A stretch of DNA of 44,145 nt, taken from a virus. The stretch lies in the IMG/VR virus record IMGVR_UViG_3300027834_000002, positions 1 through 44,145 of that record; one strand, 5' to 3'. Made by a program: the position numbers and the translations under genes. Positions within the stretch are counted from its first letter, which is position 1. Every line of letters starts with the position of its first letter. Positions 2,667 through 44,145 of the stretch are shown in pieces. The notes beneath the pieces were generated by a model. It searched no databases. It worked only from the letters and a program-made list of their open reading frames with translations, and was not told the DNA's origin.

Positions 2667-3107
2667 CTAATCCCAGATATAACCTAATTCAAGATATCCT
2701 GATGGAAGATGACAAGACCTATGTTTTTCTATTGTGTCATTATATCTACTCATAGGTACAACTCTCCTACCGTATCTTGATTTATTATCATTGCGTGGTG
2801 CATAGAGTACGTCCTCTATGAGATCATACTCTCTAACCATGCTTAGGTATTTGACTATATATGGAAATCCAGCATACATAGATGCATTATCTTTCATGCA
2901 TTCGACCACTTCATGGTAGATATCGTTTATATCTACGTTAGGCTTACATCCGGTCATATGTTTAATCATGATTCTGATTTCATATAATCCTTCCCTATCA
3001 AATCCTGTTTCCTTGGGTGGTATCGAAAGATACCTATAGAGACTTTCAGTCTCATGTCGTGGGATAGGTTTTAAAACTTCATTATATCTATTTTTCTTGT
3101 CTTTCAT
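2667..3107 (-). CDS. Hypothetical protein (146 aa)
   Basis: Track ORF. No motif recognised. Confidence 0.75.
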   Translation of the reverse strand: MKDKKNRYNEVLKPIPRHETESLYRYLSIPPKETGFDREGLYEIRIMIKHMTGCKPNVDINDIYHEVVECMKDNASMYAGFPYIVKYLSMVREYDLIEDVLYAPRNDNKSRYGRRVVPMSRYNDTIEKHRSCHLPSGYLELGYIWD

Positions 3108-5518: not shown

Positions 5519-5836
5519 TTAAATTCGGCTCAAAGTTACTATAAATCTCAAGAGTTTACCTGCGCTTACAGTGTCCCACTCATAATTAGCTACTCTATCA
5601 AAGAAACCTTTATTATCATATTTATAGACTTTTATGCTATCCTTAAACATTACTGTCAAACCGTCATGATTTAAAGCCTTACCTGCTACTAGGGCGTCAA
5701 TCATGTCCTGTCTGGCTAGTTCAACCTCTTGGTTGTGCCTTTCGACGTCATTCAAGCTCTTTAAGATTGTGTCGCTTGCTGAATTCTCAAACTCGACCAA
5801 TCTCTCTAACCTTGCGTTATTCATAATTGTCTCCAT
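5519..5836 (-). CDS. Early paralog-family protein P5 (105 aa; family motif preceded by a helical N-extension)
   Basis: Track ORF with ARQDMIDALVAGKALN...TVMFKDSIKVYKY. Confidence 0.75.
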   Translation of the reverse strand: METIMNNARLERLVEFENSASDTILKSLNDVERHNQEVELARQDMIDALVAGKALNHDGLTVMFKDSIKVYKYDNKGFFDRVANYEWDTVSAGKLLRFIVTLSRI

Positions 5837-5875: not shown

Positions 5876-6142
5876 TTAAGAGTAAACTACGACGGTTGCC
5901 TGCTGGTTTTTGATTCTAACTGAGTTGACGTCGGCCAGACCATCCTCTCTTGCTGAAACTGCCTGGGCTATGACCTCTTGTCTCATCTTATTAGTGATGC
6001 AGTTGATACAATTTCCCTTAACGACGTAATCCTCAAACATTTCGATTAACTCTTTGGTGCTGATTTTGATTGTCCTACTATGAAACGAAACGTACTCTTC
6101 GTTTCTATCGCGATCTTTTGATCGCATGTTAAATGTTCCCAT
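5876..6142 (-). CDS. First early gene, hypothetical protein (88 aa)
   Basis: Track ORF. ATG 6142 is preceded by AGGAGA (AATAGGAGACAATCATG). It is the first ORF downstream of the large non-coding region. Confidence 0.75.
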   Translation of the reverse strand: MGTFNMRSKDRDRNEEYVSFHSRTIKISTKELIEMFEDYVVKGNCINCITNKMRQEVIAQAVSAREDGLADVNSVRIKNQQATVVVYS

Positions 6143-6342
6143 GATTGTCTCCTATTAAAGTTTCGTTAAAGTTGATCTATAGTAGTGCAGGGAGTGTGCC
6201 AAACTAGGAGGTTATGAAATAAAGTTTGTAAGTGACTGATAGTACTAGGTTAGATGATATTATGGTGTGTTGTACTACAAAAGTGGAAAGTGTAAAGTCG
6301 TGACGTAAAATGTTCCATTATGTGGTAAAGTAGGTACTATTT

Positions 6343-6368
6343 AGGTGGGAAAAGGTGGGAAAAGGTAG
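6343..6368. repeat. Tandem 10-mer AGGTGGGAAA x2 plus a partial third copy (AGGTAG)
   Basis: Read directly: aggtgggaaa (6343-6352), aggtgggaaa (6353-6362), aggtag (6363-6368). Confidence 0.9.
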
Positions 6369-6400
6369 TGAGAACAAAGAGATATAAAACTGGAGCAATT

Positions 6401-6428
6401 ATTGTAACAAAATGACAAAAATTGTCAC
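6401..6428 (-). promoter_or_regulatory. Candidate sigma70-type early promoter (-35 GTGACA, 16-nt spacer, -10 TACAAT) built from two ATTGT[A/C]ACAA boxes
   Basis: Minus-strand hexamers were read from plus attgta (6401-6406) and tgtcac (6423-6428). The boxes attgtaacaa (6401-6410) and attgtcacaa (6421-6430) are 20 bp apart. The host is unknown, so the consensus match is only suggestive. Confidence 0.25.
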
Positions 6429-6435
6429 AACACGG

Positions 6436-6479
6436 ATGAGACACTTTGAGACACTTTTTGAGACACTTTTATGTCTCAT
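6436..6479. repeat. Iteron-like block: GAGACACTTT x3 direct plus one inverted half-site, bracketed by the 8-bp inverted repeat ATGAGACA/TGTCTCAT
   Basis: Read directly: gagacacttt at 6438-6447, 6448-6457 and 6460-6469, tgtctc at 6472-6477, and atgagaca (6436-6443) inverted to tgtctcat (6472-6479). Confidence 0.9.
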
Positions 6480-6641
6480 TGATGGATTTCAGTGGGAATT
6501 AGGGGAAAATAGGCTGAGGTTAGTGTTGATTTAGGTGAAAATAGGCTAGAATTAGAGGAAATTAGGTTGAGGTCAGGTTGAGGTTAAGCTAGATCAGGTC
6601 GAGATTAGGGTGGATCAGGGTGAAATTAGGTCAGGTTAGGG

Positions 6642-6683
6642 GCAACCTAAAGGGTTGCTGAAGATACTTTGTAAAAGTATCAG
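6642..6683. repeat. Left arm of a perfect 42-bp inverted repeat; each arm is a twin-hairpin module
   Basis: gcaacctaaagggttgctgaagatactttgtaaaagtatcag is the exact reverse complement of 7207-7248. It contains hairpins gcaacc-taaag-ggttgc and gatacttt-gta-aaagtatc. Confidence 0.95.
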
Positions 6684-6720
6684 CTGGATCAGGGTGGATC
6701 AGGCCAGGTTAGGGGTGGAA

Positions 6721-6782
6721 TTAGGTTGAGATCGGACTAGATTAGGTCAGGTTAGGTTGAGATCGGACTGGATTAGGTCAGG
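6721..6782. repeat. 31-bp tandem duplication inside the array (one mismatch)
   Basis: ttaggttgagatcggactAgattaggtcagg (6721-6751) is followed directly by ttaggttgagatcggactGgattaggtcagg (6752-6782). Confidence 0.9.
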
Positions 6783-6817
6783 TTAGGTCAGGTTAGGTTA
6801 GGATTAGGTCAGGTTAT

Positions 6818-6845
6818 CCCACCCCTCAACCCCTACTTCACCCCC
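6818..6845 (-). other. Canonical G-quadruplex motif on the minus strand (C-tract block on plus)
   Basis: Plus reads cccacccctcaacccctacttcaccccc. Minus reads GGGGG-TGAAGTA-GGGG-TTGA-GGGG-T-GGG, which fits G3+ N1-7 repeated four times. Confidence 0.7.
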
Positions 6846-7034
6846 ACGAAACCCGATTAATCCAGGATAACACAAATTATCAAGCAATATCCCGATATAA
6901 CCACCCTCTCAGAGCCACCACAATCGACGTTCTTCCACCCACCTAGCCCTAGGTATGGGCTGACCTAAGATGGCTTAGTCAGGTTAGGGATAGGTTAGTT
7001 TAGATTAAATCAGGGTGGGTTGTTATTACCGCTT

Positions 7035-7064
7035 GGGGGGGTTGGGGTAGGGGGTTGGTAGGGG
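7035..7064 (+). other. Canonical G-quadruplex motif on the plus strand, an imperfect inverted copy of the 6818-6845 block
   Basis: GGGGGGG-TT-GGGG-TA-GGGGG-TTGGTA-GGGG. It is followed by the small hairpin gggg-agaaa-cccc (7061-7073). Confidence 0.7.
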
Positions 7065-7206
7065 AGAAACCCCACTAACCATACAATATGTTTTTTCAAA
7101 AAGAGAAAAAAACTATAGAATGGAATCGAAAGATTTCTATAGCGATGAACGTTCCTTTGACGAAAGTACTTCTCGTCTCATATGTTTTTTTTAAATCTAA
7201 CCCAAC

Positions 7207-7248
7207 CTGATACTTTTACAAAGTATCTTCAGCAACCCTTTAGGTTGC
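7207..7248. repeat. Right arm of the perfect 42-bp inverted repeat
   Basis: ctgatacttttacaaagtatcttcagcaaccctttaggttgc is the reverse complement of 6642-6683. It extends imperfectly by 7 more bp (gttaggg versus ccttaac, 6 of 7). Confidence 0.95.
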
Positions 7249-7380
7249 CCTTAACTTTTCCCCTACCATATGTCGCATAATATTTCATTATAAAATATTA
7301 TTTATTATAAATACCAACTCCCACATGAAACCGTATAAGTTTCTATAGTGACATACCTGTCACACTTAAAACCAATGAGC

Positions 7381-7421
7381 ATAAGAAAAAGGTGGTAAGA
7401 GATATACAATCCCCTACCACC
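7381..7421 (-). terminator. Rho-independent terminator closing the late (virion) operon
   Basis: Minus-sense GGTGGTAGGGGA-TTGTATA-TCTCTTACCACC forms a 12-bp stem (two G-U pairs) with a 7-nt loop, followed by TTTTTCTTAT. It starts 5 nt after the stop codon at 7426. The two wobble positions would be A-C mismatches in plus sense, so the structure is specific to the transcribed strand. Confidence 0.8.
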
Positions 7422-7425
7422 CACA

Positions 7426-7725
7426 TTATCTCTTCCCAATCTCTTGGATAATAAACACTAACGTATTGTCTATTCTATCTAATCTCTTTACAATATGAGA
7501 CTGGAAGTCTTTATAGGTATCTTTCGATACCATCTCCCTAAGCTCTCCTTTTACGATATAAGTTTCAGGTAATGTAACCACTCTCTCTGTTATCCACCCT
7601 AATACTGGCAGTGTCAACATAAGGAATCCTATAAATACCTTTTTCCAAGCTTGGCTCTGAGCTAAGATCAACTCCTTAACACCGTGAGATGCATCCAGTG
7701 GCTCTAACTCTCTTTTATATTCCAC
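7426..7725 (-). CDS. Small membrane protein (99 aa), last gene of the late operon; holin-like candidate
   Basis: Track ORF with a GTG start preceded by TGGAGA. It has one hydrophobic helix (VFIGFLMLTLPVLGWI). Its position at the end of the structural module fits lysis genes. Function not shown. Confidence 0.7.
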   Translation of the reverse strand: MEYKRELEPLDASHGVKELILAQSQAWKKVFIGFLMLTLPVLGWITERVVTLPETYIVKGELREMVSKDTYKDFQSHIVKRLDRIDNTLVFIIQEIGKR

Positions 7726-9805: not shown

Positions 9806-10105
9806 TTACTTTCCTTTCACACCATAGGTGTATATTATTGTTCTGTTAGGTTTTTCTATCATCACGACATCTTTCTTGTTGAGGATTTTATTGACAATAT
9901 CCTTAACAAAATTCTTTTTATTTTCAATCCCAACCATTTTCACTGTCTTTGTTTTAAGTATCTTTCCGTGGTATTTATATTCCTTATGTATCTCACCTAT
10001 ATTCTTACCTTTATTGTTTATAAATATAACTCTTTCAGTTTTAAGTGTCTCCTTAGATATGACTTTAACTTTCTTGAATTTATTACCATCATCTTGAACG
10101 AACAT
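9806..10105 (-). CDS. Highly basic Lys-rich hypothetical protein (99 aa)
   Basis: Track ORF located in the virion module. Confidence 0.7.
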   Translation of the reverse strand: MFVQDDGNKFKKVKVISKETLKTERVIFINNKGKNIGEIHKEYKYHGKILKTKTVKMVGIENKKNFVKDIVNKILNKKDVVMIEKPNRTIIYTYGVKGK

Positions 10106-10814: not shown

Positions 10815-13800
10815 TTAATCCCTCTTGTATTTGATTATAGATTTAAGGAAACCAGGCATACCTTCATCACCTGTCCTCCTGATTGTCTGCATGGCCTGTA
10901 TTCCACCTGGGGCAAACACTGGTAGAGAGCCAAATGCTAAGCGTTTAAACTGTCTTTTTGCATCATTAATATCACCCATACCTGTTACTGCCTGTGCTGA
11001 TGCTGTAACCAATCTAACTGCATCAACAGCTGGTCTCCATGTTGCTGGTAAACTTGGTGATAGTGGTAATGGTCCAGTTAACACTGTCCTTGATGCTGTC
11101 CTCTCATCCCATAACAATCTCATTCCATTATAAGCCATTGCAGATGTAAGCATAAACGTAAACAACTTCTCTAGCTTCTCTGGTGTCCCTTTCGTTCTAG
11201 TTGACCATTTAGCAAAAGCCTCACCATAATTCATCCACCATGACTGAAACAAAAAACCTGTTTTAGTTAATGCTCCTTTAGAGGAAGATATTAACGGTGA
11301 ATTAGCAGTGTTGTATAAATATTGAGTATCGGCTATAACGTCATTACAAAACACTGCTTTAGCATCTTTTAAGAGATTCCTTGTGCCACCGTGGCCTATT
11401 TCCTCAGAGCCTTTCATTACCATTTTAGTGATCTTCTCTGTTGAATCAGCAGCCCTTTGGTGTATCTTCATCTTCTTAAGGAATCTCTTTTTATCGAGGA
11501 CGCCATTAACCGTATACTTGCTAATGTAATGATCCCATTTAGCAGCAGCAGCAGAACCTGTGACCATCCTATTACTTACATCAGATGACTTATAGATATA
11601 TAAACAAGTATCCTGGATACCCTGCATGGTAGGTGCATCAAATGTATGTTTACCTATCTTAATGGTTTCACCTAGCTTACTGGCTTTATTCATGAATATC
11701 AGGTCTGGAGCGAAGTCCTGTATAGCACCAATACTCCTAACATATTTCACACCTTCCTCGGAAAAGGCTCGCTGGTATCCTTTAGCCAACCAATATATAT
11801 CTTTAACACCTCCCATATCTGTAGGAACCATCATAAGAGGTTGAAATAGATTACGCATTGCAGAAAAAGGTTTCAATCCTAATGCACCCATATAGACCAG
11901 GTTGTTCATTGTCTGAGCTACTCTGGTTATTCTTTCACCTGAAATAGCTAAGCCGAATTGTTTCCTTATAATAGCTGCAACAGTATTATCAGTATCGCTT
12001 GTCATTCCAAGCATTCGTTGGATATAATGTTCAGAATACTTCTTTAGTTCTGGAGGAAGATCTTTGATACTTTCTTGGACATCTTTCATATATGGATTAA
12101 TGTTAAGTTCTTTAGCCTGCATTCTTGATCTGATATTAACCAGATCTGCTAGATTAGTAACTCTTTCACCGGCAAACTCTTCATTCATTCTTGCCTTGGT
12201 GTATCCAGATGTCATCTTACCGGGAACACCCTCCATACTTTCTCTGATTACTGGATTTTTACCGATCCTTAATCCATAGTTCTCGGTGTAATCCATAAAG
12301 TCACCACCATTAGCTCTAATGGTTAGGCTATTCTTAAGTTTCTTGGCTTTATTTCTTATCTGATATAATTCTTTCTTTGATAAATCCTTCATTGACTTAT
12401 CAGTGAACCAGTTAAGCTTGCCATCATCAAGACCTTTAATTACCAGTCCCAATATCTTTTCTACGAAATCCTTCTTACCAGACTGTGAAAGGTTGCTTAC
12501 CGATGACATAGCCTCATCGATGTACCTGTTGATACCTTCAGCTCCATTCATTGATGCTTGGAACCCTATCTTTCCTTTTTCGGTTAAACCTATAGTGTCA
12601 AATGCGTGTGTTATTTTCCCTTTCATATGTTCACCATACATAAGATCTGACCACTCAACCCATGATTTAGCTAGCTTTTGTACTGTGTGCGACTTACCTT
12701 CGAATAACTCATTCATTGCCTCTTGTGGCCGACCTTTAGCTGTCATAGTGTCTATATCTGTAACCAGCTTACCAGCTTCATCAAGATCTTTTTTACGGTA
12801 TAGTTCTTTGAATTTATATGAACCTCCTTTTGTGTTTATTTTCCCTAATCCTTTACCTTGTAAGATTGCGTGCCATGACGTTATATTCATGAATGATGAT
12901 TTATTTGAATTCTCAACCAGCTTACCAAATCTACCATATACTTTGTCTTTCACTTTATAAGTTTTATTGTATTTAGCAAATACCTTTCTTGATGCACGAA
13001 ACCAGCTAATCTTGCCTATATCTATACCCTTAAGAACACCGTGTTCACGTTTAATGGTGTTTAGTAATACATTGGCTACCATATCTGTAGGTGCGTTCTT
13101 CATTGTCAAACCAATTGCATCTTCACCGTATATATCATAAGCAATCTTACTGAATGCAGTATCTGGTTTAATCTTTGTTCCAGTTAAAACTTTATTTAAT
13201 TGTTTTCCTAAGTGTTTACTATAATGCATTTGTCTTTGAACACCTTGTGGTATATCCCATTCTTTCGATTTCTTCTTGTAAGTCTTTGAATTTCTTATAT
13301 CTGATAACGCATTCTTCTTAAATCCAGCTGCACCGCTTCGCTTGTTTGTTGTTACCCATGCATCATTCTCACCTTTAAGCAACCTTTCAGCATCTACCTT
13401 TGTTAGATTGAATGCTTTAGCAGCTCTATCGACAGGCTTTACATATGTAAACTCTGGGATATCTCTCATAAGCTTATGGGCATATGGGTCTACCTCTTTG
13501 AAGTTAACTGATCTCTCTGCTTGCTTCTTAAGTATAGATGCTTTCCTTTTTTCTATTACCTTTATTGCGGCTGCGGCAATCTTAGGGTTATCCCTTGCCA
13601 TAGCTTTAATAGCTGGCTTTATAACGTTATCAGCTTTCTTCATTGCTGTTGTAGTGGCGATTCTTTTGACAACACTCTTTGCTGATTTCAATATAAATCC
13701 TCTTACAGCAAGCGTAGCTGGTGTCAATGCTGCACCGAGTGATGCAAGTGAAAATACTTCTATTCCTAAGATAGCTGCTTTCATACCTGTTGACATTTTA

Positions 13801-14228
13801 CCAAAATCTTCCTTTGAAGATGGGATAAGGAAAGTTTCACCAGGTACTATAAACGATGCTCCTGTTTTAAGAGTAGCGGCTAGCGTTGGGTTTTTTACTG
13901 CAAATTTACCTTCCCACGAACCTTTAACGTTTTCCGAGAATTCTGTCTCTTCCTCTACAGGATCACTCCAAAACCACTTACCTATACCTAACGGCAAATG
14001 ATCTGTTGCTAAATGTGCAGCAGCAGATAGGTTAGGGTTATCAGCAGACCAAGCTCTATCCCAATTAGACATAGCCTCTACACTGAAATCATGTTCAAGT
14101 TTTAGTTGTTCCTCTTCTTCCTTATCTCTAATCTCATCGCGACCGATACCAATATAACGCTGCTCTGTTGATTGGCTGTATTTATTATCTCCATCTTCTT
14201 TGATTCCAACATATCTTTGTTCTTCCAT
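10815..14228 (-). CDS. Very large virion protein (1137 aa), candidate internal/ejection protein (T7 gp16-like position)
   Basis: Longest ORF in the genome. It lies between smaller internal-protein candidates and the tail fibre and has hydrophobic segments (AAILGIEVFSLASLGAALTPATLAV). I saw no lysozyme or transglycosylase motif. Confidence 0.85.
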   Translation of the reverse strand: MEEQRYVGIKEDGDNKYSQSTEQRYIGIGRDEIRDKEEEEQLKLEHDFSVEAMSNWDRAWSADNPNLSAAAHLATDHLPLGIGKWFWSDPVEEETEFSENVKGSWEGKFAVKNPTLAATLKTGASFIVPGETFLIPSSKEDFGKMSTGMKAAILGIEVFSLASLGAALTPATLAVRGFILKSAKSVVKRIATTTAMKKADNVIKPAIKAMARDNPKIAAAAIKVIEKRKASILKKQAERSVNFKEVDPYAHKLMRDIPEFTYVKPVDRAAKAFNLTKVDAERLLKGENDAWVTTNKRSGAAGFKKNALSDIRNSKTYKKKSKEWDIPQGVQRQMHYSKHLGKQLNKVLTGTKIKPDTAFSKIAYDIYGEDAIGLTMKNAPTDMVANVLLNTIKREHGVLKGIDIGKISWFRASRKVFAKYNKTYKVKDKVYGRFGKLVENSNKSSFMNITSWHAILQGKGLGKINTKGGSYKFKELYRKKDLDEAGKLVTDIDTMTAKGRPQEAMNELFEGKSHTVQKLAKSWVEWSDLMYGEHMKGKITHAFDTIGLTEKGKIGFQASMNGAEGINRYIDEAMSSVSNLSQSGKKDFVEKILGLVIKGLDDGKLNWFTDKSMKDLSKKELYQIRNKAKKLKNSLTIRANGGDFMDYTENYGLRIGKNPVIRESMEGVPGKMTSGYTKARMNEEFAGERVTNLADLVNIRSRMQAKELNINPYMKDVQESIKDLPPELKKYSEHYIQRMLGMTSDTDNTVAAIIRKQFGLAISGERITRVAQTMNNLVYMGALGLKPFSAMRNLFQPLMMVPTDMGGVKDIYWLAKGYQRAFSEEGVKYVRSIGAIQDFAPDLIFMNKASKLGETIKIGKHTFDAPTMQGIQDTCLYIYKSSDVSNRMVTGSAAAAKWDHYISKYTVNGVLDKKRFLKKMKIHQRAADSTEKITKMVMKGSEEIGHGGTRNLLKDAKAVFCNDVIADTQYLYNTANSPLISSSKGALTKTGFLFQSWWMNYGEAFAKWSTRTKGTPEKLEKLFTFMLTSAMAYNGMRLLWDERTASRTVLTGPLPLSPSLPATWRPAVDAVRLVTASAQAVTGMGDINDAKRQFKRLAFGSLPVFAPGGIQAMQTIRRTGDEGMPGFLKSIIKYKRD

Positions 14229-16513: not shown

Positions 16514-17743
16514 TTAACATGTCCATAAAAAAAATGATAGTGAACTGGCGCATATGCATCTAGCATACCTCGGATCTCCGCCATATGAGCACCACGTATT
16601 GTAATTATTAAACCAGTAAGCATTTACACCATCAGCACAGTTTTCTTCATCAATAACACAAGTGCCAACAGTATTAACCATATCAGTACAATACTCTTGA
16701 ACCGTATCAAAACCACCCCAATACCCAGATGATGTATATAAACAAGCTGTCTTCCCTACTGGAGCTGTTCCTACCCAACCCCATTGTGAATGCTGTTCCT
16801 GTCTCTTATTACCGTAATCAAAATAATACCTAGCCCAACTAGGGCCTAGATTATTCACCCAATACCCAGAGCCAGAAGATACACATTGATCATCATAAGC
16901 ACTATCATAAGCCCATTGCCCAGTTGTACATCTAACCCAACCAGTTATAGATTCTCCGCAAGCATCGGTTACAGTTATTGTGCAAGATCCACAAGCTGTA
17001 GCGCCTGCACTTAATTCATTAACTAAACCTGATGTATCGGAGTGTGTTAAAGAAAAACCTGTCCCAGACTCTGACCAGCTATATGGCCCAACGCCATCTA
17101 GGACAGCTATAGTACAGCTACTACTCCTTGCTATAGTTTCGGAGCTGGTGCTATCATCCCATGAGATTGAGGTGTCTGGCGGGCATCCGTATGAACAGTT
17201 AAATGGGAAGCTAATCTGTTCGCAGAAATTATCTGCTCCATCGATTACACTTATACCTATTTGATGATCTCCTGAATTAAGATCGAACGTTAGATGTCCT
17301 CCTAAATCACCAAAAAAACTATCTTCCTCTGAGGTTCTCCATTCACCTAAGTAGTCAACTAATTCAACTGATACATCTAGATGGTTATCGTGTAACGGAT
17401 AGTTGGTGCATACCCAAGCCACCAACCAGTCCATCCCATCTGAGCAATCATCTTCATGCGGAGGAACTGGATTATAAATACCGCATGTTCTACACTCACC
17501 AGATGGCTCCTCTATCCTAGGTTCCAGTCCACCATTGGTGCTCCCTACAGCTCCAGGTTCATAGCTAGGCCACTCCTGTCTTGGTAACGCTAAATGCCTT
17601 GCTCTGTATGAATCGTAATCGTATGGTCTTTCAAATTGAGATTCAACAGCTAATGATTGGTATAGATATCTTTCTGGGTTCCTGTAGTGTTTCAATAAAC
17701 TATCTTCACTCATTAAATAATTCTTCCTATTCTTCTCTGCCAT
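16514..17743 (-). CDS. Cysteine-rich virion-module protein (409 aa, 24 Cys)
   Basis: Track ORF. I counted 24 Cys, including ACGSCTITVTDACGESITG (Ig-like-domain flavour), NFCEQISFPFNCSYGC and EYCTDMVNTVGTCVIDEENC. Confidence 0.85.
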   Translation of the reverse strand: MAEKNRKNYLMSEDSLLKHYRNPERYLYQSLAVESQFERPYDYDSYRARHLALPRQEWPSYEPGAVGSTNGGLEPRIEEPSGECRTCGIYNPVPPHEDDCSDGMDWLVAWVCTNYPLHDNHLDVSVELVDYLGEWRTSEEDSFFGDLGGHLTFDLNSGDHQIGISVIDGADNFCEQISFPFNCSYGCPPDTSISWDDSTSSETIARSSSCTIAVLDGVGPYSWSESGTGFSLTHSDTSGLVNELSAGATACGSCTITVTDACGESITGWVRCTTGQWAYDSAYDDQCVSSGSGYWVNNLGPSWARYYFDYGNKRQEQHSQWGWVGTAPVGKTACLYTSSGYWGGFDTVQEYCTDMVNTVGTCVIDEENCADGVNAYWFNNYNTWCSYGGDPRYARCICASSLSFFLWTC

Positions 17744-20196
17744 TAGAAATCAATCTCCCCTCTAGCATCCACAGCATATAGGAATGAGTGTACTTCTAAT
17801 TCAAGGTCGTCTTCCGTAACTGAGAACTCTAATTGAAATGTACCACAATTCTCATGACTAGCTGAGAGCTTCGGTAACACTAAATCATAACCAGCGTTAG
17901 TTAAGTCCATCATATCTGGCTTAGTTAGAGCTGTACCAGACGTGGCCAGGTCTTTAAAGAAATTACATGCGATAGTCTTGGTTGTTGGAGATGTACGAGC
18001 TACAGCCTCTATATGGACACCTCTGAAGGTAAACCTCATCGTAGTTGTCATACCTTGCTCAGCGCTAATAGCTCTAGTCTTGATGCTATGGTTTATTCCT
18101 TGATCCACATCACTAGTTGTTTTATCAGATGTATCATCTTCAAGCTTCATAACTAATCCACCCCTAGACCCACCGTACACATAATACCGATTATCGGTAC
18201 CTCTAAAGATTAAGCCTGTTACTAGATCTATTTGCCTTGTCCACTTAGGGTAGAACTCATCAGACACATAATTATAAACCAACTCAAATCCTGCTTGTGT
18301 AGCTGAATAAGGAACTATCAAGTGGTACTCATTCTTAAGCCTATCGACAAAGCTCTGACAGTTATCTAATTTTGTGGCTTCAATAGCTGTTGAATATTCC
18401 GTATCAAAGAAGTGATTAACTGGCCCTGATACTTTCTTAGGCTTTCTACCATCAAACACATAGATACCATCTGTATCCATCCATATAGCTATAGACATTG
18501 GTTCATCAGTTTTAATAGATGGGAACCCTGTCTCTATAACTTGCACTGTCTTAGGTGAACAACATCCAATAGTCTCGCATACTTTAGCTGGCCCAAACGT
18601 TGCTGGGCTATATCCTTCCAGGAGCCATACCTCATTAGCTTTAAATATTATAAGTTCATGGTAGAAATGGGCTGCTGCAACTATCTTACTCATATCTCCC
18701 AATTGGTTTATGTGACCACTATCGCTACCAGAGAAACAATCAGGACGATCAACACATGAATACCTTAACCTGTTTGGGTATTCAACTTCACCCCACATAA
18801 ATAATCTATTCTTAAACTCTATAACACCGTCAACTGCATCGAGGTCTTCTGGTTTATTTGCTACGACTATTGATGAAACCCTTATATCATCTACAGCATT
18901 GTCCAGTGTTCCATTTGTGCCTACTCTATACCAATAGCCTGGTACACTGTCATGTGGCCTTGACCCTCTACATGGTACAACCGTGGTTCTATCGAATGAA
19001 ACTAAAGCTGACTGGGACAACGTTTTAGTCTTTGATGAATCGTCAAGGGTTCTATCATCAAGTGTTCCTACACTAGTCCAACTATCCCCGTCCCAAACAT
19101 CTATCTCGTCTATATCTATTACTGCTGTGTTTTCATAACCATCTACAACTGCAAATCCTACAGCTATTATAGGTTCTATGGTTTTAATATATATCCAGTC
19201 ACTAGTGGTGTGTCCATCCATCTGCATGTAGGTTCCAGTAGATTCATTAGTTACTTTACCTGTTAAGTTAGCATATTCCTTTGAAGTATCATTGTATTGC
19301 CTAACTGCTGCCGGATACTCAAAGACACCATTCCATTTATTAGTTACTTCACACATATCGTATTCAACTTTACACGATGTGATCTGTGTACCATCTGTAA
19401 GCGCTGCGCTAAACTCTACTTTATACCAGTAACCCATTTGATTGTCTATTAACGACATTTCATCTGCTGCGTTTTTGGCAAAAGTTATATCACCATCCTG
19501 TGCAATGGTTGCTCCACCTGATATTGTACCATCTGTTCCAACTGCATCAGTCCAGGATCCTGACCTCATGGCATACAATGTCATAGCTACCGTTTCTGAA
19601 TTAACAGTTGAACCAACCTCTATACTTATTTTACTTAACCTTTCAGGGGCACATATGTAAAGGTCATCTGTTGCGGTATCTCTAAGAGATGCATATGTGG
19701 TTGTTTTCCCATCTGTAACCCTCTTAGTGTATGAATGTATTTCTGTAGCTGATCCAGTTCTGAAAATCTTAAAACCTGTACAGTAAGGATTATCACCACC
19801 CCACGTTAAAGGTACTGAACCATCAGCATAAAAGAACTGATCATTAACCATACAGGAAAAGCCTGGTTGAGTCGTACTTAGGTCTGAACTAATACTACTA
19901 CCAAATGTAGTACCATCAGCTGGTGGGTCATTAGTTGCATCGTGTAAATTCCCATTATATTGTGCCATGAAATGGTAATCATCGTTTAAAGGGTGTGTAT
20001 ACTGGTGAAGAGATAGGATACTGTTAGCACCAAGGGTAGTAGAATTATGAAGAGTACAACCCTTTCTAACTTTCCAACCACCAAGAGCGCTAACCTTCCT
20101 CATGTTTAATCCATCAGACACACTTCCGGCTGGTAATAAAGTTGCCGGAGTTACTCCATCATATTTTCCGTTTAACGGCTCTTTAAATAGTTTCAT
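17743..20196 (-). CDS. Large tail protein (817 aa), tail tubular B/nozzle-like by size and position
   Basis: Track ORF. It follows a 278-aa protein, as gp11/gp12 do in T7-like order. No motif-level proof. Confidence 0.85.
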   Translation of the reverse strand: MKLFKEPLNGKYDGVTPATLLPAGSVSDGLNMRKVSALGGWKVRKGCTLHNSTTLGANSILSLHQYTHPLNDDYHFMAQYNGNLHDATNDPPADGTTFGSSISSDLSTTQPGFSCMVNDQFFYADGSVPLTWGGDNPYCTGFKIFRTGSATEIHSYTKRVTDGKTTTYASLRDTATDDLYICAPERLSKISIEVGSTVNSETVAMTLYAMRSGSWTDAVGTDGTISGGATIAQDGDITFAKNAADEMSLIDNQMGYWYKVEFSAALTDGTQITSCKVEYDMCEVTNKWNGVFEYPAAVRQYNDTSKEYANLTGKVTNESTGTYMQMDGHTTSDWIYIKTIEPIIAVGFAVVDGYENTAVIDIDEIDVWDGDSWTSVGTLDDRTLDDSSKTKTLSQSALVSFDRTTVVPCRGSRPHDSVPGYWYRVGTNGTLDNAVDDIRVSSIVVANKPEDLDAVDGVIEFKNRLFMWGEVEYPNRLRYSCVDRPDCFSGSDSGHINQLGDMSKIVAAAHFYHELIIFKANEVWLLEGYSPATFGPAKVCETIGCCSPKTVQVIETGFPSIKTDEPMSIAIWMDTDGIYVFDGRKPKKVSGPVNHFFDTEYSTAIEATKLDNCQSFVDRLKNEYHLIVPYSATQAGFELVYNYVSDEFYPKWTRQIDLVTGLIFRGTDNRYYVYGGSRGGLVMKLEDDTSDKTTSDVDQGINHSIKTRAISAEQGMTTTMRFTFRGVHIEAVARTSPTTKTIACNFFKDLATSGTALTKPDMMDLTNAGYDLVLPKLSASHENCGTFQLEFSVTEDDLELEVHSFLYAVDARGEIDF

Positions 20197-38072: not shown

Positions 38073-38866
38073 TAAACCTCCATGACTTTAATCTTAAACC
38101 TGCCTGATGATTGTGGCGTTATCGTAATCTCAAAACCACCAAGGGTTGTAGGTAGATAATTCGCAACCTCAGCATAACTTGTTGTACCCTCTTCTAAAGT
38201 TTTAAGAAAAGTACCGCACTCTATAATATACCTTTCTTTTGCTATGAAGTTGCTCTTGCCTGAAACAGAGAGCTGAGGATACGCTTTGAAGACTTTACCA
38301 TGTGAGTGACCGAAAAGGAACAAGTCTGCATCATATGACTTAAGATCTTTCTCGTACCTTGTTAAACTTGCTCCACCTGTTCTCCCTGCGCCATGACCAT
38401 GGTGCGCCCTGATCCTTACAGTGCGACCACCGTGGCCGCCTTTAGTTAAGACAAGCTTGTAGTAGCATGAATAACCAGCGTACGTCAAGCCTAGTGCCTT
38501 ACAGATGCGTTTAGTGGGGTTCGTACCGGAGTGTTTGAGTATGGTTTCTTCATGGTTCCCTGTTCCATAACCTATGAACTTATCTTTAATGGGGGTTAAG
38601 AGGTCGCATGCCATTTCTATCTGGTCATCAATTATTGCGGAAGACTTTGTCTTGTCTATGGCCTTGGAGTATCTAGGATCCTTAGTCCCGATTGCATCTA
38701 CTATGTCTCCTCCCCCAATGTAAAATAAATTGTCATCCTTGCATGAGATGAAAGATTTGAACGCTGCTTCATCAGCAAGCTTGTTACCTAAATGTACGTC
38801 AAAAATTGGCCGCAGCCTGATACTTTTAAACTCTGAATAGTTAATCCGTCTGTAGATTATCTCCAT
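38072..38866 (-). CDS. Calcineurin-like metallophosphoesterase (264 aa)
   Basis: It carries the full MPP motif set: DVHLG, GGGDIVD, GNHE, HHGHG, GHSH. Confidence 0.85.
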   Translation of the reverse strand: MEIIYRRINYSEFKSIRLRPIFDVHLGNKLADEAAFKSFISCKDDNLFYIGGGDIVDAIGTKDPRYSKAIDKTKSSAIIDDQIEMACDLLTPIKDKFIGYGTGNHEETILKHSGTNPTKRICKALGLTYAGYSCYYKLVLTKGGHGGRTVRIRAHHGHGAGRTGGASLTRYEKDLKSYDADLFLFGHSHGKVFKAYPQLSVSGKSNFIAKERYIIECGTFLKTLEEGTTSYAEVANYLPTTLGGFEITITPQSSGRFKIKVMEV

Positions 38867-39357
38867 TAGTCTTCTCCTGTAAAGCAGGTTAAAAATTTCG
38901 CTCGCACGGTTTTGTTTACGAAAAAAGCTTGGGTAAAATCCTGGTAGGAACCGTAATATATTCCTCTATACCTTACTCTCCATTTTTTACCCTTCTTTCT
39001 CCAGCGAATCCCAGTTACGCCAGACGTATTGTTGACCTGGACACCCCTGTTTTGCATATTGCACGCATGTGTCGCATGTCTTAAGTTTACCCAGCGATCA
39101 TCTATTCGGACTCTGTTCCAGTGATCCACTTGATGCTCCGGAAAATAACCCTCCATATATAGAAATGCCAGGCGTGCTCGTCTATAGAGCTTATTATTAG
39201 TTCTTATTCGCCAATATCCATCAGATCCTAACCCACCAGCAGTGTCTCCAGGTTTAATTATATTACTACGAGCAACCAACCACACCATCTCACCAGTCTC
39301 CGGATCGTACCTCAACAGCTCCTTAAGTCTCTTCTGTGTTAACTTTTTCTTACCCAT
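38866..39357 (-). CDS. HNH homing endonuclease with AP2-like DNA-binding domain (163 aa), the intact copy
   Basis: N-terminus KLTQKRLKELLRYDPETG, HNH core HQVDHWNRVRIDDRWVNLRHATHACN, then SGVTGIRWRKKGKKWRV (AP2-like). It is free-standing between unrelated genes. Confidence 0.85.
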   Translation of the reverse strand: MGKKKLTQKRLKELLRYDPETGEMVWLVARSNIIKPGDTAGGLGSDGYWRIRTNNKLYRRARLAFLYMEGYFPEHQVDHWNRVRIDDRWVNLRHATHACNMQNRGVQVNNTSGVTGIRWRKKGKKWRVRYRGIYYGSYQDFTQAFFVNKTVRAKFLTCFTGED

Positions 39358-41588: not shown

Positions 41589-42096
41589 TTAAAGTTTTAT
41601 TATTTGTTCCGTGAAACATCTTTGGTCTTTACCTGCTTCAATACATGCTTCTTTTGCTGCTATTGCATCTTGCTTTGATTTAAAACGTCCGATGTATTTA
41701 CGTTTCCCTCCTGTTGTGTGCCTAGTTATCCAACAATTTTCAGCTTTACGATAAGACACTCCAGAACAACCTGATGTATTAGCTGTGCTGTTTTGCATAT
41801 TACAATAGTGTGTAACTTCACGTAGATTAATAATTCTATTGTCGCCTTTAATATTATTTATGTGATCAACCTCATACTTCAGGGAAGTAGCCGTGAACAT
41901 ATAACCATGCTAGTCTATGCCCCCTATAACGTTCCCCGTCAATCCAAACCTGGATGTACCCATTAGAGTCAGTGGAATTGAGGATATCACCAGCTTTTGC
42001 ATTCCATTTTCTATCCACCTTTCGAACGAACAACCCGGTAATCTCATTATAATCCAATAATTCTTTCAATCTTTTTTGTGTTAATTTCTTTTTCAT
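41589..42096 (-). pseudogene. HNH/AP2 homing endonuclease split by a +1 frame change (74-aa plus 103-aa fragments)
   Basis: Fragment 1 reads MKKKLTQKRLKELLDYNEITG...HRLAWLYVHGYFPEV* and fragment 2 reads ...YEVDHINNIKGDNRIINLREVTHYCN...SGCSGVSYRKAENCW. Together they are colinear with the intact copy at 38866. The break is near 41872-41900 and is not in a homopolymer. Confidence 0.8.
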
Positions 42097-43420: not shown

Positions 43421-44145
43421 TTAAAAGCCTCCATAAATAATAGGGTCTTGATCGTATACCTTTTGATATCTACCTTCAAATGCCAGCGTTGAGTGCCATA
43501 ATTCGCCATCTCTTGCTTTGAGACATGCTATATCAAGGTTACTTGATCCTCTAGTCTCGGTATGGAGCATTAAGCATATATCTGCGTCGGCTTCGAGGCT
43601 TCCTGAATCTCTAAGACCGCTTAATCTTGGTCTCTTGTTTTCAATATCCCTCCTTAATTGAGCTAATGCTATGACAGGTGTATTGTATTCCTTGGCCATG
43701 GATTTCAATGCACTACTAATTATCCCAAGCTCAAGATTTCTATTACCTGTACGAGCTTTAACATACATTAACTGCACATAATCTATAAATATAGCTGATA
43801 CTTTATTATTCATAGTGTATGAAGCTATAAAGGACTCTACATTCTCAAGCGCTTTGAAGAAAGGTTTATCTATTACAACAGTATTAGATTTACTAACAAT
43901 ATTTAACGCATTGTTTAGTTTATCCATTTCACTATCGTTTAGATCAGCCTTTTTAAGGTTAGTTAAATTTATAAGGCCTATACTGGCTAACCTACGCATC
44001 ATAACAGCTTCGGAACTCATTTCAAGCGAAAAAAACACACACTTCCCATCATAATGTTTCGATATATATTCTATCATATTTAATGCTAATGCTGTTTTAC
44101 CTATAGATGGTCTAGCTGCAATTAATGTTAAAGTCTTGGGCTCAA
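43421..44145 (-). CDS. dnaB: Replicative DNA helicase DnaB, C-terminal part (continues from 1..689 across the junction)
   Basis: RecA-like core motifs: CVFFSLEMS, IFIDYVQLM (Walker B), VIALAQLRRDIE and SGLRDSGSLEADADI. The frame stays open to the window end and matches bases 1-127. Confidence 0.9.
   Translation of the reverse strand, partial: EPKTLTLIAARPSIGKTALALNMIEYISKHYDGKCVFFSLEMSSEAVMMRRLASIGLINLTNLKKADLNDSEMDKLNNALNIVSKSNTVVIDKPFFKALENVESFIASYTMNNKVSAIFIDYVQLMYVKARTGNRNLELGIISSALKSMAKEYNTPVIALAQLRRDIENKRPRLSGLRDSGSLEADADICLMLHTETRGSSNLDIACLKARDGELWHSTLAFEGRYQKVYDQDPIIYGGF
44019..44145. repeat. Right copy of the exact 127-bp terminal overlap
   Basis: Identical to 1-127. Confidence 0.95.

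Follow-up and report, generated by a model that had tools for sequence, protein, structure and literature searches.

The window, by which we mean the whole 44,145-nt stretch of viral DNA analysed here (IMG/VR record IMGVR_UViG_3300027834_000002), carries a long inverted repeat in the sole long non-coding gap of the genome (6143–7425), which extends from the late terminator to the early promoter. Because its first 127 nt (1–127) are identical to its last 127 nt (44019–44145), the window is a circularly assembled complete genome of 44,018 bp, which is podovirus-like and has every gene on the minus strand. A contig in the ENA (L025; 44,159 bp, k = 141) represents a 44,018-bp circle closed through the core of the repeat and agrees in genome size. 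In the direction of the genes, the gap comprises the late terminator, a double hairpin (7363–7327), an AT-rich stretch, the right arm of the repeat, AT-rich DNA with more hairpins, a C-rich tract, a short block common to relatives, a G-rich tract, a long array of the CCTAA type with the left arm inside it, three GTGTCTCAAA repeats and a sigma-70-like early promoter. The terminator of the late genes is intrinsic (7390–7422, minus strand) and consists of a stem and TTTTTCTT. At the opposite side, 6401–6470 (minus strand) is probably the early promoter and operator, with three tandem GTGTCTCAAA repeats at 6437–6470 and the promoter at 6428–6401 (GTGACA-16-TACAAT, with TG). This early control region is 85–90% identical to its counterparts in relatives (also to 9857–9942 of the nearest one) and is the best-kept non-coding stretch between them and the window. 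The −35 region of the promoter overlaps a 16-nt self-reverse-complementary stretch (6413–6428).

A repeat search of the window delimited the two arms as 49-nt units at 6635–6683 (left arm, plus strand) and 7207–7255 (right arm, minus strand), which are 98% complementary (48/49) and separated by 523 nt. By direct string comparison, 6642–6683 is the exact reverse complement of 7207–7248 over 42 nt, and the sole mismatch (6639 against 7251) lies within the outer 7 nt. Each arm forms two perfect hairpins joined by the linker TGAA: hairpin 1 (GCAACC-taaag-GGTTGC) has a 6-bp stem and a 5-nt loop, and hairpin 2 (GATACTTT-gta-AAAGTATC) has an 8-bp stem and a 3-nt loop. In the left arm these parts occupy 6642–6658, 6659–6662 (the linker) and 6663–6681, and in the right arm they appear in opposite order as hairpin 2′ (7209–7227), linker (7228–7231) and hairpin 1′ (7232–7248). 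Folded as DNA, an arm reaches −11 kcal/mol (z = −4.9 to −6.9), a value equalled by none of 200 shuffles. An earlier, sequence-only reading of this stretch had claimed the 42-bp perfect repeat, its extension to 48 of 49 positions and the two adjacent hairpins in each arm, and all of this is borne out by string comparison and folding. The last late gene ends with a stop codon 171 nt before the right arm begins, and the late terminator stem precedes this arm by about 135 nt. The window holds the arm sequence at the two bracketing positions only, and a perfect inverted match of 42 nt in 44 kb is expected about 5e-17 times by chance (about 1e9 position pairs × 4^-42).

The repeat is not an assembly artefact, because a JGI contig (L024) and the ENA contig L025 both carry the same sequence, and because a Logan contig (L026; 43,467 bp) breaks where a k = 31 assembly graph must. 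The ends of the latter contig lie at 7221 and, judged by its size, at 6669, that is, 30 nt from the mismatch at 6639, which is the break predicted for a k = 31 graph at an inverted repeat of 48/49 matches. We also considered contig ends as physical genome ends and rejected this, as the Logan contig breaks at the k = 31 limit, and two contigs of related strains (L027 and L028) start inside the repeat array and come from a multi-strain sample. The practical implication is that perfect inverted repeats of this sort break short-k assemblies, and that one may wrongly take them for genome ends, invertible switches or transposons.

An invertible switch was one of the options put forward from the sequence alone. 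According to this model 6684–7206 would be a programmed segment flipped by a site-specific recombinase acting at the arms, and it might draw on the perfect inverted repeats round a short segment and on the fact that the core is unplaced in the Logan assembly. However, the Logan break falls exactly at the positions predicted for k = 31 (6669 and 7221), and the JGI and ENA contigs both span the core, are 100% identical to the window and, at the level of assembled sequence, show one orientation, beside which a minority orientation might exist. Moreover, no ORF (open reading frame) or promoter–gene pair would be flipped, and the relatives have no equivalent of the repeat. Scans of the 71 ORFs with Pfam and PHROG (25 of 53 families being listed for PHROG) gave no family match to an integrase, invertase, transposase or HUH/RAYT protein by Pfam or among the PHROG matches listed; the absence of a recombinase gene, also claimed earlier, therefore holds for these 71 ORFs, serine and tyrosine recombinases included. 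We consider a programmed switch very improbable. On rare occasions general homologous recombination across the 49 bp might invert the segment, which would not amount to a programmed switch.

The 523-bp core between the arms (6684–7206) is resident non-coding phage DNA rather than cargo. It contains no ORF of at least 60 aa, and its promoter-like sites (8 versus 5.5 ± 2.5 in shuffles) are not in significant excess. Inverted similarity ends abruptly at the arm boundaries, and none was found inside the core beyond them (its halves score 16 against a null of 15.2 ± 3.2). This abrupt end marks the unit as discrete, and a decayed large palindrome is ruled out by the lack of inverted similarity between the core halves. 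The CCTAA array (TTAGG-type on the plus strand) flanks the left arm on both sides, with one part outside it (6496–6634) and another inside the core (6684–6816), the latter made of 31-nt units with a 10-nt TTAGGTCAGG sub-period. The array is regular once 6642–6683 is taken out, and the left arm's outer 7 nt, which read CCCTAAC on the gene strand and bear the only mismatch, are themselves an array unit. Farther into the core, a short block at 6905–6963 (minus strand) is shared with three repeat-less relatives (L015, L027 and L028), with 95–96% identity by BLAST over 6941–6963 and continuing to 6905 by eye; it is missing from two others (L033 and L034). The latter two lack (in L033 at about 1290–1300) a stretch of about 170 bp that is present in L015 (9513–9685), L027 and L028 and has AAGATAT at both bounds. 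Since the missing stretch includes the block shared with the core, the block is dispensable. The core also contains a hairpin at 7111–7146 (minus strand) that has CTATAG at each side and is related in sequence to the hairpin modules at 7327, 7498, 6087 and 3019 described below.

These features bear on a second option of the sequence-only reading, a MITE-like insertion. The whole 621-bp segment, arms and core together, would then be a non-autonomous transposon of the MITE type (a miniature inverted-repeat transposable element) with 49-bp terminal inverted repeats. Terminal inverted repeats round a short interior of mixed AT and GC content with no long ORF would suit such an element. By contrast, the array is found to either side of the left arm, and the comparison of relatives that had been proposed as a check found the core block in relatives without arms, which argues against the core as mobile cargo. 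Nor did the wider search that had been proposed return any copy: the exact arm 40-mer has no match in IMG/VR, and the arm pattern with free loops and linker has none in one genome each from 185,579 prokaryotic species and none in JGI metagenome contigs. As claimed before, there is no target-site duplication; the outer flanks, ending in aaattaggtcag on the left and beginning with ttttcccctacc on the right, share no direct repeat. As no transposase is encoded either, we regard a transposon that includes the core as hardly credible. The idea of a mobile element is probably right at a smaller scale, since each arm alone resembles one small hairpin module.

In the window, 8 double hairpins are perfect and have stems that sum to 11 bp or more, compared with 2.55 ± 1.49 in shuffled sequence, and none of 100 shuffles reached 8. 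An energy-based census of the window yielded 18 double hairpins versus 10.5 ± 2.4, with 7 of them within 3.0–7.6 kb, and its most stable unit is an arm of the repeat. In the gap itself, 10 hairpins have stems of 6 bp or more where 2.2 are expected, a 4–5-fold excess. The modules measure about 35–65 nt and fold as double or triple hairpins, several of them with GAAA-type loops. Of 14 such 4-nt linkers between hairpins, 5 are TATA (P about 1e-7) and 7 conform to TRYA (P about 1e-8), compared with TATA in 1 of 9 in 169 kb of distant relatives. Directly past the late terminator lies GTGACA-ggta-TGTCAC TATA GAAAC-ttatacg-GTTTC (7327–7363, minus strand, as are the following three). Three further modules reside in genes: one in a 99-aa late gene (7498–7531; GGTATC-gaaa-GATACC TATAA AGACT-tcc-AGTCT), which matches a 27-nt in-frame insertion, one at the start of the first early gene (6087–6125), within a 48-nt in-frame stretch, and one in a 146-aa early gene (3019–3053). 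The last of these is a near-inverted copy of 7498–7531 with 20 nt identical; modules 7531–7498 and 3053–3019 thus form an inverted pair 4.5 kb apart with a score of 58, which none of 200 shuffles reached.

The nearest relative, IMGVR_UViG_3300027852_000016 (L001/L015, here L015), shares 69–84% protein identity with the window for the genes compared, and further strains of the L015 group come from other contigs and samples (L027, L028, L033, L034, L035 and L036). The gap of L015 is 1.3 kb long and is built from the same kinds of parts without a long inverted repeat; only the early-promoter side of the window gap (6143–6470) aligns with it. A collection of 5.8 billion proteins yielded only an identical strain and the L015 group, and no relatives at intermediate distance. 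Distant relatives (about 30% identity) have no long inverted repeat in the regions examined, and their density of double hairpins is 0.4–2.2 per 10 kb versus 3.3 in L015. Among deposited phages no DNA match was found to the gap or to 25 kb of the window.

Between the window and the strains of the L015 group, double and triple hairpin modules appear as clean insertions or deletions (indels). Two of these are in genes: 48 nt or 16 codons in frame (about 6088–6135) at the start of the first early gene are present in the window, L015, L027 and L028 and not in L033/L034, and 27 nt or 9 codons in frame (about 7504–7530) in the 99-aa late gene are present in the window and not in L015 or L033. The remaining three are non-coding. 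In the gap, about 40 nt (GCGATC-gaaa-GATCGC TGTA GTGATTT-gat-AAATCAC) are found in L027 and not in L028 or L015. After the late terminator, a 41-nt twin hairpin (GCGAC-caggt-GTCGC TATA GATGCTT-taac-AAGCATC) is found in L015 and not in L035, L033 or L036, and about 50 nt beyond that site a 66-nt triple hairpin is found in L033, L034 and L036 and not in L035 or L015. L035 is thus empty at both the 41-nt and the 66-nt site. In the 27-nt indel and in the indel of about 40 nt in L027, one half of a stem is pre-existing flank. Hairpins also recur at different loci: in L015 GCGGC-cttta-GCCGC separates two late genes, and in L033 it is part of the gap; the module at 8542 of L015 shares a segment with the L033 module (score 40), and the early-gene module resembles the L027 insert. 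Module sequences outside this lineage were not found in IMG/VR. At one stage we took the right arm to be orthologous to the L015 twin hairpin, with which it had been aligned by MAFFT and showed paired substitutions in the stems. Both the orthology and the covariation were dropped because L035 shows the L015 module to be an indel, and because the similarity between arm and L015 module is not significant.

Several other repeats were noted. In L015 (9270–9487) and L033 (1060–1290) about seven copies of the palindrome yCTAAC-nnn-GTTAGr at 19-nt spacing stand in place of the CCTAA array; they resemble iterons bound by initiators or repressors, and their CTAAC core is common to the CCTAAC units of the window. 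A unit of about 34–37 nt (ATTTCAAAAATTATATyATATAGGGAGGCG...) is present in five tandem copies in L035 (2835–3005), two in L015 (9154–9221) and one in L033 (about 975–1005). Its end, TATAGGGAG, matches the initiation region of T7-class promoters, and the window genome has no RNA polymerase family match. Strings resembling T7 or SP6 promoters also occur (GTCACTATAGAAAC in the window, TATAGGGAGG in the units of the relatives); no RNA polymerase family accompanies them, and over the bulk of their sequence the proteins of 1137 and 817 aa, the largest two, match no family. The palindrome CTATAG, which occurs 39 times in the window compared with 17 ± 4 in dinucleotide shuffles, is only 1.4-fold enriched over a fourth-order Markov model; as most copies lie in plain coding sequence, it was not used as a signal.

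Taking into account the discrete nature of the unit, its folding and the turnover of similar modules in this lineage, we propose that the arm pair consists of two opposite copies of a discrete 49-nt double-hairpin unit, which belongs to a class of modules gained and lost in this lineage and is neither switch nor transposon. We hold this view with moderate confidence, the chances being about even. The unit would belong to a lineage-specific class that turns over in the late end, the gap and the early region, between genes as well as inside them. The right arm may be the source copy, as it is placed in the post-terminator stretch where relatives also carry modules of their own, which would have been acquired independently. 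The left arm would be a later inverted copy that landed within the CCTAA array; we consider it the derived one because it interrupts an otherwise regular array. That its outer 7 nt are an array unit and carry the only mismatch is what might be expected of a junction at short homology. The 523-bp core would be ordinary resident control DNA.

Copying most likely took place during DNA replication or recombination, by a template switch to the opposite strand at short matching sequences. Such switching is compatible with copies that are inverted and lie close together, and with stems that derive in part from flanking sequence. In a template-switch mutation, replication erroneously copies a neighbouring stretch the other way round, and perfect stems can result (PMC8794818). 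The two indels in which one stem half comes from the flank would be of this kind, as would the arm pair, an inverted copy 572 nt away. Template switching, however, is a mutational mechanism and not an element family, and by itself it leaves the TATA linker and the hairpins common to several loci and genomes unaccounted for. The recurring linker and the shared hairpins suggest a more specific process, possibly an enzyme that acts on hairpins; an enzyme acting on hairpins in single-stranded DNA would be the alternative copier.

Several points weigh against our proposal. The arm has no statistically significant similarity to other modules and matches its own second copy alone, and its linker is TGAA and not TATA. 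Because of these two properties the arm is placed in the module class by architecture, size and location and not by sequence. In a region that evolves fast, perfect identity over 42 nt might result from selection or gene conversion and not from recency. All module indels could in principle be precise deletions and not insertions. No relative was found that is close enough to display the empty-site or one-arm state of either arm. Our direct observations are that the repeat exists and is unique, that modules are enriched and differ in presence among relatives, that recombinase genes were not detected and that the array is continuous; the copying mechanism, the membership of the arm in the class and the identity of the source arm are what we infer.

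The main rival explanation, and the part of the earlier interpretation that remains in contention after its switch and its core-containing transposon have been discarded, is that the arms are functional sites flanking an origin or terminus. They would be strand-specific hairpin sites that bracket a replication origin or packaging region, such that each unwound strand displays the twin-hairpin signal once to a primase, helicase loader, terminase or other structure-specific protein, and events start symmetrically and run outward. The location of the arms in the sole long non-coding gap, between late and early genes, is compatible with this model, as are the features that they flank, namely iteron-like arrays, AT-rich DNA and the sole two G-quadruplex motifs in the genome. 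A DnaB-like helicase is encoded by the phage itself, and signals on the plus strand at the left and on the minus strand at the right would, from the geometry, prime outward. Likewise, 42 nt are identical while the surroundings cannot be aligned with a relative at about 70–84% protein identity. On the other hand, the nearest relatives share the layout of the gap without having such a pair: in L015 the late side alone has a module, a single one, and in L035 the late side is empty, the contig stopping short of the early side. No primase or RepB′-like protein was detected among the 71 ORFs, and similar modules are present inside coding genes, where such a function makes no sense. We therefore judge paired functional sites to be rather unlikely, although less so than any of the other rivals. 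The two canonical G-quadruplex motifs are located at 6822–6854 (minus strand) and 7035–7064 (plus strand), both in the core, and a gene-strand G-rich tract of like kind was seen by eye in the gaps of L015, L027, L028 and L033.

The closest precedent for paired sites is provided by ssiA and ssiB in oriV of the IncQ plasmid RSF1010, hairpin sequences of about 40 nt, one per strand, which lie near iterons and AT-rich DNA and become exposed through a helicase that the element itself encodes (PMC8567376). The geometry of the arms and the neighbouring arrays would fit a putative origin of this type, and a phage helicase is present. In contrast to an ssi site, which has one hairpin and a dedicated primase, RepB′, each phage arm has two hairpins and no primase was found. 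Furthermore, the phage arms are 523 bp apart, and the relatives do not have the pair.

A role of the arms in RNA was considered as well. The twin hairpins, readable in either direction, might insulate the control region or protect transcript ends, or an arm–arm duplex of 49 bp might be cut by RNase III. For one strand that includes both arms, folding predicts a 49-bp stem closed round the core (as RNA −236 kcal/mol, z = −8.2), and the right arm follows the late terminator stem at a distance of about 135 nt. The GAAA-type loops of several modules would be in keeping with such a role, and bacterial REP (repetitive extragenic palindromic) sequences are thought to be RNA elements downstream of genes (PMC3733652). 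Yet no T-run follows either arm on the minus strand. The sole weak match to an intrinsic terminator (7232–7248) is on the gene-less plus strand, where a weak T-rich tail (CCTTAACTTT) follows 7248, and the scan lists such matches at a rate no higher than in shuffles. The statement made from the sequence that the arms lack a U-tract was thus essentially right. In addition, no Rfam family was matched at gathering thresholds, and relaxing them brought up chance-level matches alone in the gap (E 0.26–0.48); a good intrinsic terminator precedes the right arm, so that little read-through is expected; and the relatives are without the pair. An RNA role appears unlikely to us, more so than paired functional sites.

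Among known repeats, the modules are most reminiscent of mitochondrial hairpin elements, namely the double-hairpin elements of Allomyces, the repetitive hairpin elements of sponges and the GC clusters of yeast. These consist of consecutive hairpins, are restricted to groups of closely related genomes, vary by presence and absence between them, are intergenic as well as intragenic, are retained in transcripts and encode no enzyme (PMC2800124). For the Allomyces elements no flanking duplication was reported (PMC2800124, citing Paquin et al. 2000). Similarly, the phage modules, including the arm, fold as at least two consecutive hairpins, and the class varies between close relatives, also inside genes and without flanking duplications. 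The differences are that the mitochondrial elements inhabit organelle genomes and the modules a bacteriophage, and that the phage copies are few and heterogeneous in sequence with the TATA linker as their most constant part, the arm itself having TGAA and no significant sequence similarity to the other modules.

REP sequences are sometimes intragenic and carry a short GTAG tag beside the palindrome (PMC3733652, PMC3337134), and the L027 module has TGTAG before its second hairpin. REPINs (REP doublets forming hairpins) have spacers of tens of bp (34–110 in SBW25), occur in tens to hundreds of copies per genome and are associated with a RAYT gene (PMC3337134). By contrast, the arms are separated by 523 bp of unrelated resident DNA without internal inverted symmetry. 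The arm is present in two copies and the whole module class in about 7–8 per genome; the TATA/TRYA tag is found in 7 of 14 modules, with TGAA in the arm. No RAYT or HUH gene was detected among the 71 ORFs of the phage, and the arm is absent from the cellular genomes searched. The defining features of REPs and REPINs, that is, many copies, a short self-pairing spacer and RAYT, are therefore not those of the phage repeat.

As for its other genes, the phage encodes a portal protein, a large terminase, a major head protein, an internal virion protein, ribonucleotide reductase, exonucleases, thymidylate synthase, a RusA-like resolvase and a PD-(D/E)XK nuclease, and the gene for the DnaB-like helicase straddles the window junction. 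Compared with those of deposited or cultured phages, the large terminase reaches about 24% identity at best, and for this reason the type of packaging cannot be inferred. Among the 71 ORFs, many of which have no assignable function, no family match to a primase, DNA polymerase or RNA polymerase was obtained by Pfam or among the PHROG matches listed, and no tRNA or tmRNA was found. Three or four free-standing HNH endonuclease genes, one with AP2, are located in the region for replication and nucleotide metabolism (38866–39357, 41589–41900 and at least one further ORF). No Pfam family matches the largest proteins, of 1137 and 817 aa (10815–14228 and 17743–20196, minus strand), and the PDB contains no sequence relative of either. 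One weak PHROG match connects the 817-aa protein with an internal virion protein (phrog_511, E = 7e-5, about 55 residues), and the 1137-aa protein has counterparts of about 30% identity in a wider group of uncultured viral contigs of 42–49 kb. In the early region, the second early gene is single in the window (5519–5836) and a tandem duplicate in L015 (10504–10839 and 10900–11235; two 111-aa paralogues), and several small early proteins of the window share, by eye, a similar N-terminal pattern.

Our analysis contributes to the description of a phage lineage in which the population of small hairpin modules is of greater interest than the repeat itself, readings of the latter as a switch or transposon being unlikely. 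If the arms were a pair of functional sites, the origin or the site of packaging would thereby be located for a phage family without cultured relative. If instead they are copies of one hairpin unit, small enzyme-less hairpin repeats of the sort familiar as bacterial REPs and as the double-hairpin elements of organelles would also turn over in a compact phage of lytic type, even in its genes. Co-circulating strains with filled and empty sites would then offer a simple, sequence-tractable system for distinguishing template switching from a hairpin-acting enzyme. It is tempting to go further and speculate that the lineage hosts so far undescribed mobile modules of about 40 nt and of the form hairpin–TATA–hairpin, which encode no enzyme, copy themselves in either orientation within and between co-circulating phages and settle in frame in genes, with the arm pair as the freshest event. 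This possibility is a tentative one, which we rate below an even chance; if it held, the modules would be a viral counterpart of the mitochondrial double-hairpin elements and the bacterial REPs.

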